Source: an uncultured Acidimicrobiaceae bacterium
GTDB lineage: Bacteria > Actinomycetota > Acidimicrobiia > Spongiisociales > UBA5794
NCBI GenBank assembly: GCA_964584755.1
Contig: CAZPAV010000004.1
Coordinates: forward strand, 7,386 to 71,385
Reading direction: 5' to 3'
Length of the DNA: 64,000 nucleotides
Part shown: piece after piece, positions 17,143-23,883 of the stretch
How positions within the stretch are numbered: the first letter of the stretch is position 1
Layout of the letters: every line of letters starts with the position of its first letter
Position numbers and translations under genes: made by a program
The notes under the pieces: generated by a model
Databases searched by the model: none
What the model saw: the letters and a program-made list of their open reading frames with translations, nothing else
Told to the model about the DNA's origin: nothing

Positions 17143-17216
17143 GGGGCTGTAGCTCAGTTCGGCAGAGCACTTGCATGGCATGCAAGGGGTCAGGGGTTCA
17201 AATCCCCTCAGCTCCA
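17143..17216 (+). tRNA. tRNA-Ala (anticodon GGC)
   Basis: Hand-folded cloverleaf: acceptor GGGGCTG/CAGCTCC with G3:U70 Ala identity pair, D-arm GCTC..GAGC, anticodon stem CTTGC/GCAAG with loop ATGGCAT (GGC), T-arm AGGGG-TTCAAAT-CCCCT, discriminator A. Confidence 0.85.
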
Positions 17217-17236
17217 CCCCCAAGAATCCCTTGCGC
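17175..17236. repeat. attL core: 3' half of tRNA-Ala plus 20 bp, duplicated at 23822-23883
   Basis: 62-bp direct repeat ATGGCATGCAAGGGGTCAGGGGTTC[A/G]AATCCCCTCAGCTCCACCCCC[A/G]AGAATCCCTTGCGC, 60/62 identical. Confidence 0.65.
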
Positions 17237-17250
17237 TGCAAGGGATTCTG
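17222..17250 (+). terminator. Perfect 12-bp hairpin immediately 3' of tRNA-Ala (AGAATCCCTTGC-gct-GCAAGGGATTCT); left half lies in the att core
   Basis: Inverted repeat read directly; no U-tract, so terminator function tentative. Confidence 0.35.
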
Positions 17251-17279
17251 GCATTGCCGGTCCAGAACGGAACGACCCC

Positions 17280-17312
17280 GAGTCCGTCCAGAGTCCGCGG
17301 AAAGTCCGCGGG
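17280..17312 (+). repeat. Three tandem GAGTCCG(C/T)-type repeats just inside attL (putative arm-type Int/Xis sites)
   Basis: GAGTCCGTCC AGAGTCCGCGG AAAGTCCGCGGG; the 22-bp block CAGAGTCCGCGGAAAGTCCGCG is shared with 23688-23712 near attR. Confidence 0.4.
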
Positions 17313-17368
17313 AGATCGAGCCAAGGCCATCCCGAAGAGACACCAACACGCCTCGCGGTGGTCAGGAT

Positions 17369-18085
17369 TCAATCTCCAGCGACGAGGATCTCAAGTGCCG
17401 CGCGTCCGTCCTCGGCACCGTCGATGTTCCGCCACGCGCGCGCCTCAGGGTCGAGGAGGTCGGCCTGTCTTTTCAGCCACTTCCGCTCGTTGTCGCTGAG
17501 TTCCTCGGCCATTCCGAATGGATCGCCAACGAGCGTCAGGAGAAAGGCGAGGTCCTCGCGCTGAGCGTCGGGAAGGTCGTCGACTTCGATTGCCCGGGCC
17601 TTGACCAGTATGGCGCCGAGGAGGGTGGGGCGCGGGATGCTTCCGACTTGAGTATCCGTGCGGACTGCGACTTGGACGGATCGCCTCAGAGCCTGGCTCC
17701 CGCCGGGCACCTCCACGGAACGGACTCCTGGTGACACCTCCCGCGGCGCTCGGGTCCCGATGCCGTCCGGAAGGAGAACGTCGATCTTGACGTCGCCGCG
17801 GACGAATCGATGACCAACGCCGTCTGCTGAGACTCCTTCGAGCTGGTATCCCAGCGACTTCAGGCCGCGGACGAATGCCTTCGGGTGGTCGGTGATGGCT
17901 CGAACGTTCACGATGACATCGAGGTCCGTGGATCTTCGGGGTGGCGTGCGCTCGTGCTCGAGGCCGTGTAAGAAGACCATCTGAGCTCCGACCAGTGTCC
18001 AGTCGCTCGGAATCACCGCGGCGACTTCGAGGAGGGCGTCCCACAGTTGGGTGGCGAGTTCATCGTCACGAGGGATGGTGATCAA
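17369..18085 (-). CDS. Nucleotidyltransferase-fold protein (minimal Pol-beta-like NTase; possible AbiEii/DUF1814-like toxin)
   Basis: hG[GA] ... DhD pattern (TLVGAQMVFLHG ... STDLDVIV ... KIDVLL). 238 aa. 22 nt downstream of an HTH protein gene on the same strand. Confidence 0.45.
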   Translation of the reverse strand: MITIPRDDELATQLWDALLEVAAVIPSDWTLVGAQMVFLHGLEHERTPPRRSTDLDVIVNVRAITDHPKAFVRGLKSLGYQLEGVSADGVGHRFVRGDVKIDVLLPDGIGTRAPREVSPGVRSVEVPGGSQALRRSVQVAVRTDTQVGSIPRPTLLGAILVKARAIEVDDLPDAQREDLAFLLTLVGDPFGMAEELSDNERKWLKRQADLLDPEARAWRNIDGAEDGRAALEILVAGD

Positions 18086-18107
18086 GGCTTCTCCTGTTGG
18101 GCTCCAC

Positions 18108-21975: not shown

Positions 21976-22073
21976 GTCCAGGACGCACAGGGACGAGGTG
22001 AGTTCCCGCAGGCAGGGATCGTGATGGGACGCGGCCGGATCCCGCGGTGGAGCTGCGGTGTTGCTCCTGCGGC

Positions 22074-22970
22074 CTATCCGGACCGCCACTGCCAGGTGTC
22101 GGGATCCCATGTTGCATCGGGGACTTGCTCACCGATGAGCGGGTTCCAGAAGGAGCGGAGCGCCTCTCCGGCTTGGGGGAGCGTGACCCATGGGATGTCG
22201 TAGATGGCCACGAACTGGGCCCACCGGTCCGCCCAGCGGTTTGGTGGGTTGGGGATCTGCGGAGGCCACGGGGTGTTTCGGGTCTCGAACGTCGCTTCGC
22301 AGGTTGCGACGACGGCAGAGCTCGGTGAGATGGGGAGGCGTTCGGCGATGACGAGCATGTCGTAGAGGTCTCGGGGCCGGCTGGATCCGTTGCCGTAGGA
22401 GCGTGCGTAGGCGTGGAGCTTCTCGGCGAGTTGTTGTTCGACGGGGATGGCGGGGACGATAGGGGCAGGGAGGCCGGCGAAGTCGAGGACGTCACGGAGG
22501 GGAATCTCGGTGAGGGGTCGCCGGTCGGTGGGCATCAAGTTGACGTCGAGGTTGACACGTTCGAACTCTCTGCCGGCGAGCATCGCGAGAACGGGGAACC
22601 GGAGAGCACCGGCCGCAGTCTCGCCCTGGAGGGGCCGGGCTCGGCCGATCTGGAAGGCGAACCCGTCATCCACGTCGAGCAGCGCCGCCTGATCGAGGGC
22701 GGCTTCGAGTTCGTCGCGGGTGGCTCGCCAGTTGGCGTCGGCGTCGGAGGTCGCTCGGGCCCGGTCGCCGAGACGTGCGAGGAGGGCCAACCCTCCCTTG
22801 AGCGCCCAGGTCCCCGGCGGAGCCGTGTGTTGGAGCCGCGCGAGGAGTCGCTGATGGGCGACTTCCTTGCGAAGCCGGTCGAGGGGACGGCCCGTCTGGC
22901 GGGCACGGGTGAGGAGACGTCGTTCGAGCGCCACACGGAAGGCATGGGGACTGTCATAGGGGCCGATCAT
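22074..22970 (-). CDS. AbiEii-like nucleotidyltransferase toxin (DUF1814 family, type IV TA/abortive infection)
   Basis: N-terminal WALKGGLALLARLG...TSDADANW (hGG + DxD NTase motifs as in the AbiEii LKGGTAL signature); 298 aa; ATGA-coupled to upstream AbiEi-like gene. Confidence 0.65.
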   Translation of the reverse strand: MIGPYDSPHAFRVALERRLLTRARQTGRPLDRLRKEVAHQRLLARLQHTAPPGTWALKGGLALLARLGDRARATSDADANWRATRDELEAALDQAALLDVDDGFAFQIGRARPLQGETAAGALRFPVLAMLAGREFERVNLDVNLMPTDRRPLTEIPLRDVLDFAGLPAPIVPAIPVEQQLAEKLHAYARSYGNGSSRPRDLYDMLVIAERLPISPSSAVVATCEATFETRNTPWPPQIPNPPNRWADRWAQFVAIYDIPWVTLPQAGEALRSFWNPLIGEQVPDATWDPDTWQWRSG

Positions 22971-23542
22971 GCCGAGAGGGATCGGCCGAAGACCTCGGCG
23001 AGGTCGGGCTGCTGCTCGACGACCTGGCGAAGCCGGCCGGCCCGGATGAGGCCACGCTCGATGGCTTCTTCTGCAGCGGCGGCCGCGACCGCCGGATCCG
23101 CGGCGACGTCGAGGATGGTTCGCATCGGTGTGGTGACGGGAATCCCCTCGCGGACCGTGACGTCATCCGCCGGGAGCGTCGCCCGATGGATGAGCACACC
23201 GGGGCGCCTCCCCCGGAAGCGACGCGCAACGGTGATGTGGATGACCGCCGGCATGGCGTCGGCCAGGCCGTAGATCGCCAATGCCGTGTCGTGGGAGGCC
23301 ACCGCACCGTCACCGACCCACAGGATGGTGGCCATCACGTCTTCGAACGGGTGGCTCGGATAGTTGAGCAGGCGGTACACGCCCCGGTCGACACGCTCCA
23401 GGTTGCCCGAGCGGACGTGATGGGACAGGTAGCGACGGTCGACCCCCAGCTCTTCCGCCTGGCTCGTGCTGAAGTAGCCGAGCTGGGCGTCGGCGAGGGA
23501 ATACAGACGGTCGAGCACCCACTTGGCTGGCATGAATGTCAT
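22967..23542 (-). CDS. AbiEi-like antitoxin/transcriptional autoregulator (wHTH N-terminus)
   Basis: YFSTSQAEELGVDRRYLSHHVRSGNLERVDRGVYRL wHTH then SHDTALAIYGL block typical of AbiEi family; stop overlaps AbiEii start (ATGA); palindromic operator at its start. Confidence 0.6.
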   Translation of the reverse strand: MTFMPAKWVLDRLYSLADAQLGYFSTSQAEELGVDRRYLSHHVRSGNLERVDRGVYRLLNYPSHPFEDVMATILWVGDGAVASHDTALAIYGLADAMPAVIHITVARRFRGRRPGVLIHRATLPADDVTVREGIPVTTPMRTILDVAADPAVAAAAAEEAIERGLIRAGRLRQVVEQQPDLAEVFGRSLSA

Positions 23543-23557
23543 AGTAACTATGACATT
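23535..23557. promoter_or_regulatory. 23-bp perfect inverted repeat AATGTCATAGT-a-ACTATGACATT overlapping the abiEi start codon(s): candidate autoregulatory operator
   Basis: Palindrome read directly; AT-rich island in GC-rich context; AbiEi proteins are known to bind inverted repeats in their own promoters. Confidence 0.5.
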
Positions 23558-23670
23558 GGCGCCACGCCAGCGTTTTCCGATCGACTCCGGGTCGCCTGAT
23601 CTTCGAGGCTCACCTGCGTTCCCGCCAGCAGGGACCTCGAACGGCGAGACCCGGCGTCGAACCTCCACTG

Positions 23671-23721
23671 GGGTCCGCGCAGAGTCCGCCGAGAGTCCGC
23701 GGAAAGTCCGCGAGAGGTCCG
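23671..23721 (+). repeat. Five tandem ~10-bp (A/G)GAGTCCGCG repeats just inside attR (putative arm-type sites)
   Basis: GGGTCCGCGC AGAGTCCGCC GAGAGTCCGCGG AAAGTCCGCG AGAGGTCCG; same orientation and sequence family as 17280-17312. Confidence 0.4.
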
Positions 23722-23821
23722 AAAACGACCGGAAATGACCAGAGGCGTTGAGAGGTGAAATGCCAATAGCCACAAGGGTTTTCGGCCGTTTCGCCAGGTG
23801 GCGAAACGTGCCCGTTCTTCG

Positions 23822-23883
23822 ATGGCATGCAAGGGGTCAGGGGTTCGAATCCCCTCAGCTCCACCCCCGAGAATCCCTTGCGC
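23822..23883. repeat. attR core: displaced partial (3'-half) copy of tRNA-Ala
   Basis: Same 62-bp sequence as 17175-17236 with 2 mismatches; lacks the 5' half of the tRNA, so not a gene. Confidence 0.65.

Follow-up and report, generated by a model that had tools for sequence, protein, structure and literature searches.

The 64,000-nt stretch of DNA analysed here, hereafter the window, comes from an uncultured Acidimicrobiaceae bacterium (GTDB lineage Acidimicrobiia; Spongiisociales; UBA5794; assembly GCA_964584755.1, contig CAZPAV010000004.1, positions 7,386-71,385, forward strand), and its only tRNA gene is a tRNA-Ala(GGC) at 17143-17218 on the forward strand (ARAGORN). The 6.6-kb interval that begins at this tRNA is very probably a small integrative genomic island of this uncultured Acidimicrobiia bacterium, inserted in tRNA-Ala(GGC). 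Read rightward from the tRNA, it presents the left attachment site (attL), a hairpin, arm-type units, a gene for a nucleotidyltransferase (NTase)-fold protein, a helix-turn-helix (HTH) gene, a palindrome, a tyrosine integrase gene, small divergent open reading frames (ORFs) including a SEC-C gene, a NUDIX gene, AbiEii, AbiEi, a second set of arm-type units and the right attachment site (attR). The tRNA is intact and is 96-100% identical to the tRNA-Ala(GGC) found beside rsfS in related Acidimicrobiia; a preliminary description of this DNA had placed it at 17143-17216, which is correct for the start but two nucleotides short at the end.

The tRNA is partly duplicated at the far end of the interval. 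A repeat search returns a 67-nt direct repeat (17170-17236 and 23817-23883, 94%), within which the block 17175-17236 is identical to 23822-23883 at 60 of 62 positions, the two mismatches being A/G in the T loop (17200/23847) and A/G in the 3' flank (17222/23869). The length of 62 bp and the two mismatches agree with the preliminary description, but the block divides into 44 nt of tRNA and 18 nt of flank and not into 42 and 20. Its left copy (attL, forward strand) thus takes in everything from the anticodon loop of the tRNA to the 3' end of the gene; the right copy (attR, same strand) is a tRNA 3' fragment. The identity block opens at the first base of the anticodon loop, and nt 1-32 of the tRNA are absent from the second copy, which had rightly been said to lack the 5' half. 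In the window, a 33-nt core pattern matches these two repeat sites only (0 expected from 100 dinucleotide shuffles), and local alignment on either strand finds no third copy of the tRNA fragment. Rfam tmRNA matches at the tRNA and at attR fall below the gathering score and reflect tRNA-like sequence.

A terminator-type hairpin of the tRNA follows on the forward strand (17220-17251; -20.9 kcal/mol, z -4.36). Folding places its left half in the repeat and its right half in DNA of the island, in keeping with the earlier remark that the hairpin lies half inside the att core. A homologous hairpin is found in L013 (loci from other genomes and metagenome contigs carry L numbers here), the hairpin is complete in the host-side flank of locus L002, and the L006 repeat goes no further than the tRNA end. 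Because the right end of the repeat meets the terminator loop, with the hairpin cut at that loop at attR, this end is probably a rearrangement breakpoint and not where identity would naturally stop; an older family-type arm or flank, truncated by an insertion sequence (IS) event, probably accounts for the additional 18 nt and for where they end. The T-loop mismatch is polymorphic, since the attR of L088 has A as in attL, and probably reflects a later mutation in a dead fragment, which would leave a single original difference between attP and attB (17222).

Just inside both ends lie the short repeats that had been put forward as arm-type sites. They consist of RRGTCCG units with an 11-bp phase, three in the P' arm beside attL (17280-17312) and five in the P arm beside attR (23671-23725), on the forward strand and in the same orientation at both ends. 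Runs of at least three units in this phase occur nowhere else in the window (0 expected); the plain 9-mer RAGTCCGCG is not enriched across it (5 found, 6 expected), and only the phased arrays are significant. A degenerate copy (19160-19195, forward strand), recognised by alignment with L002/L006 and L095, sits inside the 3' coding end of the integrase, where relatives have functional-looking arm repeats. The P arm is conserved at 78% of nucleotides relative to the equivalent arm of L002. Restricted to the two arms in the window and kept throughout the family, the arrays fit the role first proposed for them and are probably binding sites for the N-terminal domain of the integrase.

The integrase gene lies on the reverse strand. 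Its longest ORF extends from 19135 to 20250, the start originally chosen, but the start is probably at 20223, giving a protein of 362 aa (19135-20223) as in database copies that are 99% identical; an exact look-up of the 371-aa ORF gave no match since the real protein is the 362-aa form. That this is a phage-type tyrosine integrase with a readable R..HxxR..Y signature is borne out. It matches PF00589 (5.6e-19) and PHROG phrog_1 (2.1e-73); against XerC/D and IntI models it reaches 47-86 bits, where the cut-offs are 220-335; and the catalytic residues R194, H286-x-x-R289, H312 and Y322 are all present when the protein is aligned to XerA (5hxy) and to the integrase structure 3nkh. PF26003 (Integrase_N_phage) is precomputed on the 99%-identical protein P0001 and on most homologs, whereas our own Pfam scan returned only PF00589 and a weak PF14659. 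Among 2127 homologs the closest are all in Acidimicrobiia. The nearest annotated relatives are integrases of Gordonia and Mycobacterium phages (33-36% identity), and the integrase of pMR2 of Micromonospora, an actinomycete integrative and conjugative element (AICE), is 31% identical. Upstream of the gene, three or four direct copies of (G/A)AACCCTTTC stand at 20358-20412, with an inverted copy about 200 nt away (20588-20620; 33-nt arms, 73% complementary); these repeats may be an array to which a regulator binds, placed between the integrase and the SEC-C operon that diverges from it.

The interval is also set apart by composition. Its GC content is 0.668, against 0.728 in the left flank and 0.720 beyond 27.2 kb, and GC at third codon positions (GC3) is 0.73-0.86 in its genes against ~0.92 in host genes; a comparison with the flanks, suggested at the outset, thus finds the interval lower in both measures. 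The AT-rich patches reported inside it correspond to three 100-nt stretches at GC 0.50-0.56 (18800-18899, 0.50; 23500-23599, 0.55; 23700-23799, 0.56). Taken together, the intact tRNA and its like-oriented 3' fragment, the intact integrase, the repeats on two arms and the lowered GC and GC3 uphold the original reading of the repeats as attL and attR. The same DNA, at 99.2-100% identity and with the same junctions, is present in at least seven independent metagenome assemblies (JGI 3300000272, 3300023507, 3300009408, 3300023503, 3300023444 and 3300000098; Logan SRR5189949; near-identical copies at L001, L088-L092, L180 and L182). Six contigs span attL and four span attR (L001, L088, L089, L090).

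Of the genes between the attachment sites, one pair falls into a known class. AbiEii (22074-22970, reverse strand; PF08843 3.6e-27, PADLOC 1.2e-77) is the predicted nucleotidyltransferase toxin and AbiEi (22967-23542, reverse strand; PF13338 and PF09407, PADLOC 1.6e-66) the predicted antitoxin and regulator; the genes overlap by 4 nt, an 11-bp palindrome (~23540-23562) lies at the AbiEi start, and by its profile matches 22074-23542 is a canonical AbiEi/AbiEii pair. As in described AbiE systems (PMC7450476, PMC10435456), an AbiEi with winged HTH and C-terminal domain adjoins and overlaps an AbiEii with a DUF1814 NTase domain, with a palindrome in the promoter. Beside the pair, a NUDIX hydrolase gene (21442-21975, forward strand) is part of the cargo; the NUDIX and SEC-C proteins noticed at first sight are both recovered by profiles (PF00293, 2.5e-20; PF02810, 2.4e-08).

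The second toxin-antitoxin (TA)-like pair lies between the tRNA and the integrase. The preliminary description counted two NTase/HTH pairs: the AbiE pair and the HTH_17 partner of the second pair are supported by profiles, but the second NTase is recognised by predicted fold, with no Pfam match. This 238-aa protein (17369-18085, reverse strand), the putative toxin, matches nothing in Pfam, NCBIfam or PADLOC, including the DUF1814/AbiEii profiles. The best Foldseek matches of its AlphaFold model (pLDDT 92.6) are MenT1 (8an5_B; E 7.8e-6, TM 0.49/0.61) and ANT(2'')-Ia (E 3e-4), and residues G33, D54-x-D56 and D102 are invariant, so that the model predicts a Pol-beta-type NTase fold with catalytic carboxylates. 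The likeness to MenAT lies in this predicted fold, in a GS...DxD...D pattern as in MenT1 and in the HTH neighbour; unlike MenAT and AbiE, the protein has no DUF1814/AbiEii profile and its partner is unrelated to AbiEi or MenA1. As a pair it resembles MenAT only in its modelled fold (PMC10435456, PMC7450476), and we regard it as a predicted TA pair. The partner, a 231-aa HTH_17 protein (18108-18803, reverse strand; PF12728 1.1e-08), has an excisionase-type N-terminus (TIGR01764 1.3e-4, below the cut-off; PHROG excisionase 6.8e-5), and its gene travels with that of the 238-aa protein in L093-L096. As the partner of the NTase it is a candidate antitoxin or regulator, and a weak excisionase (Xis) candidate. 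Upstream of the pair, a putative promoter or operator site (18823-18862, reverse strand) has a sigma-70-like TTGACA-18-TAGAGT lying inside a perfect inverted repeat of 12 bp, where the AT content of the island is at its highest over 100 nt. The idea that the two NTase/HTH pairs are paralogs was rejected, as no similarity was found between them.

The SEC-C gene (20809-21320, forward strand) encodes a coiled coil and a C-terminal SEC-C zinc motif, and a 1-nt deletion at ~20940, after the 'RRY' codons, divides it into one piece of 48 aa (20809-20955) and another of 122 aa (20952-21320); homologs of 158-178 aa align across both pieces. It had been listed as accessory cargo, an assignment in need of correction: homologs (39-49%) recur 617-1028 nt upstream of the integrase, divergently oriented, in 8 of the 25 related loci with enough sequence, among them loci of a tRNA-Val type, and the gene belongs to the backbone together with the integrase. 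A ribbon-helix-helix fold for its N-terminus, suggested by a sequence pattern only, was dropped, with no support from Pfam at E<=1 or from Foldseek.

We propose that the lambda-type tyrosine integrase of the element joined its attP to the tRNA-Ala(GGC) gene that lies downstream of rsfS, recombining within the 3' part of that gene. From the start of the identity block we infer that strand exchange most likely took place at the anticodon loop. With a terminator hairpin and its own version of the tRNA 3' half carried by the element, the tRNA would be left intact at attL and its displaced original 3' half would come to lie at attR. On this scheme the attB junction (A..G) is predicted to read GCACTTGCATGGCATGCAAGGGGTCAGGGGTTCAAATCCCCTCAGCTCCACCCCCGAGAATCCCTTGCGCCGGGGCTGTCGC and the attP junction CCCGTTCTTCGATGGCATGCAAGGGGTCAGGGGTTC[A/G]AATCCCCTCAGCTCCACCCCCAAGAATCCCTTGCGCTGCAAGGGATTCTGG. 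The backbone would comprise the integrase and a small divergent operon ending in the SEC-C-motif protein, and the cargo the AbiEi/AbiEii abortive-infection/TA pair, the NUDIX gene and, between the integrase and the P' arm, the second NTase-fold/HTH pair. No replication, transfer, capsid or relaxase domain was detected in the whole island by Pfam, NCBIfam and PHROG scans; lacking replication, transfer and capsid genes, the island would need a helper for any spread.

Islands of this structure are catalogued in Islander, a collection of islands integrated in tRNA genes (Hudson, Lau & Williams 2015, PMC4383910), and the tRNA gene, the 3' fragment and the non-Xer integrase that define such islands are all found here. 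As in the catalogue, an intact tRNA gene (tDNA) at one end is matched at the other by a displaced 3' fragment of like orientation, and a non-Xer tyrosine integrase lies between them (PMC4383910); an identity block centred on the anticodon loop corresponds to the class 'A' attP, and tandem or decayed neighbours occur at the same tDNA. The present case differs in its host, an Acidimicrobiia bacterium known here only from metagenomes, in its specific integrase clade, in the 1.9 kb of cargo between integrase and attL, in its very small size and in having the integrase as sole mobility gene. With integrases of the lambda/L5 type it shares the R..HxxR..H..Y residues, repeated arm-type sites on both sides and, probably, the order of N-terminal, SAM-like core-binding and catalytic domains; it differs from them in the absence of phage structural or lysis genes and of a recognisable small Xis gene, in the clade-specific RRGTCCG motif with its 11-bp phase and single orientation, and in the placing of the relatives' P' sites in the integrase 3' end. 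The island is a new member of a well-known type of element, and the way in which such islands are understood to work is unchanged.

Related elements occupy the same site in other Acidimicrobiia, where integrases 73-88% identical to this one adjoin tRNA-Ala(GGC) and rsfS. The island of L002 (GCA_036398015.1), ~7.1 kb long and with its own 62-nt repeat, has an integrase 85% identical (tblastn) next to tRNA-Ala(GGC)/rsfS; that of L006 (JGI 3300076801), ~4.8 kb long and with its own 46-nt repeat, has one of 79% next to the same tRNA. The cargo of both is unrelated to that of the present island, and PHROG annotation of it returned no matches. In a metagenome scan, an integrase at least 63% identical, or a fragment of one, is followed by tRNA-Ala(GGC) on the opposite strand in 21 contigs, and the distance from codon 328 to the tRNA start is 142-145 nt in most of them. 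Integrases at 45-58% identity are found at tRNA-Val (TAC, CAC, GAC), and those at 34-37% at tRNA-Pro(CGG) and, once, tRNA-Ser(CGA); the target thus follows integrase phylogeny (L113-L141, L146), and the tRNA always starts ~140-165 nt after codon 328. An RRGTCCG pair between integrase and tRNA is present in nearly all Ala-type loci and is absent elsewhere save for single matches in L129 and L165. At attR sites and attP-like junctions of the family, the tRNA fragments begin at tRNA nt 28-33.

Loci without this integrase (L008, L010, L012, L014) show rsfS, tRNA-Ala and terminator, without the arm motif. In L008 the tRNA and 49 nt of flank are 88% identical to the attR side of L006, and its left side matches the attL side; with both sides of L006 represented, L008 is an attB-type allele for the sister element. 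The comparison of occupied and empty sites asked for in the preliminary description could therefore be made for L006, but no clean site was recovered for the host itself.

The position of the second NTase/HTH pair distinguishes this island from most of its relatives. Elsewhere the P' arm repeats form part of the integrase 3' coding end and adjoin the tRNA directly; in this island the integrase and the tRNA-side arm are parted by an additional segment (17319-19169) with the pair, and the integrase stands 1.9 kb from attL because the NTase/HTH module fills a slot that is empty in most relatives. The core-proximal arm repeats are intact and the copy in the integrase 3' end is decayed. L095/L096 show the same order of tRNA, NTase, HTH and integrase 3' end at 82% identity, and an AbiEi-like gene takes this place in L106 and L147, the gap in L106 being 2 kb and its arm motif remaining next to the tRNA; the slot thus recurs in the family. 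In L093/L094 the NUDIX-AbiEii-AbiEi block (95% of nucleotides) is joined to the HTH/NTase module (89.6%) without the segment 18905-21420, L095/L096 keep just 70 nt of the integrase, and L093-L096 thus display a mosaic reshuffling of island modules. In other genomes, the L093/L094 and L095/L096 loci carry these cargo genes without integrase near bipA (typA), and L095 has a Nudix 5' fragment between tRNA-Ala and the NTase gene.

Several further arrangements were observed in the family. In L002, an HK97-type capsid gene (1822-2736) lies just outside the attR of the sister island, and a 71-nt piece of P arm with arm repeats is duplicated 1.74 kb inside it (4180-4250 and 5920-5987); these features may belong to a second, decayed tandem element. 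Beyond the attR of L006 stands a 166-nt copy of the integrase 3' end and arm repeats without the core (6065-6230), and a block of ~1.49 kb inside that island is duplicated in tandem (6591-9317, 88-94% identity). L109 (1142-1559), L154 and L158 carry an integrase 3' end, arm repeats and, of the tRNA, only a 3' fragment (nt 28-75); in L109 and L158, P-arm repeats follow ~110 nt further on, giving attP-like or tandem-junction structures on short contigs.

Against the reading of this interval as an integrated element stand several observations. No clean empty site was found for the host, as the right flank is not syntenic with that of any recovered relative; a search among RsfS relatives, with one genome per species, did not include the host species (best match 79%), and the closest relative, L013, is occupied by an integrase-less remnant. 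Exact core and flank patterns for attB and attP gave 0 matches in metagenome and viral contigs, no attP or circular form was seen, and the contig breaks that a circle would predict are absent from SRR5189949. Pfam, NCBIfam and PHROGs reveal no bona fide excisionase. The SEC-C frameshift is present in all copies checked (L001, L088, L089, L092, L178-L183), integrase-less derivatives of the same gene set exist (L013, L093/L094, L095/L096), and attR has no hairpin, the right half of the terminator being absent. The exchange point is deduced from the start of the identity block, and the function of the arm sites from their position, phasing and family-wide conservation.

One rival reading bears on the present state of the island, not on its origin. 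That it did integrate but is now a fixed, decaying remnant, no longer excising, has a little under an even chance. All assemblies covering the site have the island at this position, its integrase-linked SEC-C gene is split by the same 1-nt deletion in each copy checked, an excisionase is not recognised, the attR terminator is truncated beside an IS remnant, the cargo has integrase-less descendants (L093/L094, L095/L096, L013), and SRR5189949 lacks an attP-type break. On the other hand, the integrase ORF is intact with all catalytic residues, and attL and attR differ at 2 of 62 positions, one of them polymorphic between samples. In addition, the core-side arm repeats match the family consensus while the copy in the integrase end has decayed, a contrast that suggests selection on the site after the cargo was gained.

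Contig ends in SRR5189949 give a further, indirect sign against such a state. The site is occupied in every assembly spanning it; the Logan k=31 contigs of this run show a left flank that ends at 17221, an island contig from 17192 to 23864 and a right flank that starts at 23848. Since attL and attR share exact runs of only 25, 21 and 14 nt, the repeat alone cannot collapse a k=31 graph. In six simulated scenarios, only an extra attB-type junction (tRNA 5' half, T-loop A, CCCCG, right flank) reproduces breaks at 17192-17221 and 23847/8; a variant of attR, or attP of either kind, adds breaks absent from the data. The simulation leaves unexplained the contig end at 23864 (23835 in SRR5189948), and a branch at node 23835-23864 appears in both runs (loci L186, L180 and L184 in SRR5189949; L185 in SRR5189948). 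The pattern is a hint that SRR5189949 holds an island-free allele, whether from a coexisting strain or from cells that lost the island.

Alternatively, the interval might be a composite of two family members, formed by tandem integration followed by deletion of the first integrase and the middle att site, with the P' arm and the NTase/HTH pair of the first element left ahead of the second. This would account for the NTase/HTH module lying between two copies of the arm repeats, one intact (17280-17312) and one degenerate (19160-19195), when in relatives the integrase normally adjoins tRNA and arm repeats directly. The family does contain tandem or attP-like junctions and integrase 3' remnants (L006, L109, L154, L158), and the arrangement in L093/L094 shows that modules recombine. 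Yet no tRNA fragment or P-arm remnant is found within 18804-19134. Moreover, the same order recurs in L095/L096 at 82% identity and another TA-like gene occupies the slot in L106, indicating that the slot may be filled by another route; we consider a composite origin possible but rather unlikely.

A more distant comparison is with AICEs such as pSAM2, and a degenerate AICE of the pSAM2 type, stripped of its replication and transfer modules, would explain integration at a tRNA 3' end, an attP just downstream of the integrase (here with attL displaced by 1.9 kb) and a Nudix gene, pSAM2 itself having a Nudix protein, 'Pif' (PMC2440964). The 31% identity with the pMR2 integrase points the same way, but actinophage integrases are equally close (33-36%). 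Unlike an AICE, the island has no replication initiator, FtsK-like transfer gene, spread genes or GntR/XRE regulator, and by the published definition is not one (PMC2440964). Searches of its ORFs against Pfam, NCBIfam and PHROGs found no AICE replication protein (RepSA, RepAM, Prim-Pol) and no FtsK/SpoIIIE-like transfer protein. With Rep, Prim-Pol, FtsK/Tra, Spd and GntR/XRE-type domains also missing from the sister islands L002 and L006, and with no room left for them in 6.6 kb, such an origin is very improbable. Finally, that the repeat arose by chance or through misassembly around ordinary chromosomal genes has next to no probability: nothing was found in its support beyond five odd substitutions in L092, which show that assemblies are imperfect at the repeat, and against it stand a second copy in 0 of 100 shuffles, independent assemblies that span attR (four) and attL (six) with the same junctions, a composition unlike that of the host and the same architecture in other genomes.

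Returning to the integrated island and its relatives, we tentatively envisage an undescribed family of minimal elements (~5-7 kb) of Acidimicrobiia, dedicated to tRNA-Ala(GGC), that would act as shuttles for TA and anti-phage genes and depend on an unknown helper, although we hold this wider view to be doubtful. The only conserved parts of such a family would be the integrase, the RRGTCCG sites, normally set within the integrase 3' coding end, and, in many members, a divergent SEC-C coiled-coil protein, with NTase-type modules entering a dedicated slot between integrase and P' arm; within it, the SEC-C protein might be a directionality factor or regulator of a new kind. To our knowledge, the Acidimicrobiia are a class known almost entirely from metagenomes, in which few mobile elements have been described, and the present island offers a clean, well-bounded case of horizontal gene acquisition among them. 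The integrase, core and set of arm sites form a candidate site-specific recombination tool for high-GC actinobacteria, and the uncharacterised NTase-fold/HTH pair carried beside AbiE is a candidate TA system. Of modest further interest are a target and arm motif shared across the family, a cargo slot that recurs and a SEC-C protein linked to the integrase. The rsfS-linked tRNA-Ala(GGC) is a defined site at which to seek strain-variable genes and explains the frequent contig ends there in metagenome-assembled genomes (MAGs) of the class. MAG contigs of L008, L010, L011 and L015 end 0.2-1.2 kb past rsfS/tRNA-Ala, which fits assembly breaks at a variable site, and L011 retains a 41-aa C-terminal integrase remnant after the tRNA.

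To the right of attR, the DNA does not return at once to the composition of the host. From 23884 to 27200, GC3 is 0.76-0.85, and the stretch carries a transposase remnant, genes for a GNAT acetyltransferase and a zinc-type alcohol dehydrogenase, and an ANT(2'')-like gene truncated to 110 aa. The transposase remnant (23937-24326, reverse strand), noticed early as IS5-like and just outside attR, is confirmed as an internally deleted remnant of IS5/IS1182 type that begins 53 nt from attR and matches only the C-terminal part of PF13751 (positions 59-121 of 125). The GNAT and ANT(2'')-like genes (24323-25577, GC3 0.76-0.77) likewise lie outside the island. In L013, the closest relative, which has no integrase, a full-length ANT homolog directly follows tRNA-Ala and arm repeats. 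No tRNA fragment was found to bound the low-GC3 stretch right of attR. This DNA, to ~27 kb, looks like an older, integrase-less island remnant cut by the IS remnant, and the tRNA-Ala is a hot spot that gathers remnants.

Two minor features of the independent assemblies may be added. L092 (JGI 3300023444, positions 3729-3822) carries five transversions, all in the attL tRNA 3' half, and is 99.9% identical over the rest; these transversions would break the T arm and are probably consensus noise at the repeat. L001 and L091, both from JGI 3300023503, overlap only at 18999-19141 of the window, a stretch of 143 nt between the HTH gene and the integrase, which suggests that this stretch has a second context in the population.

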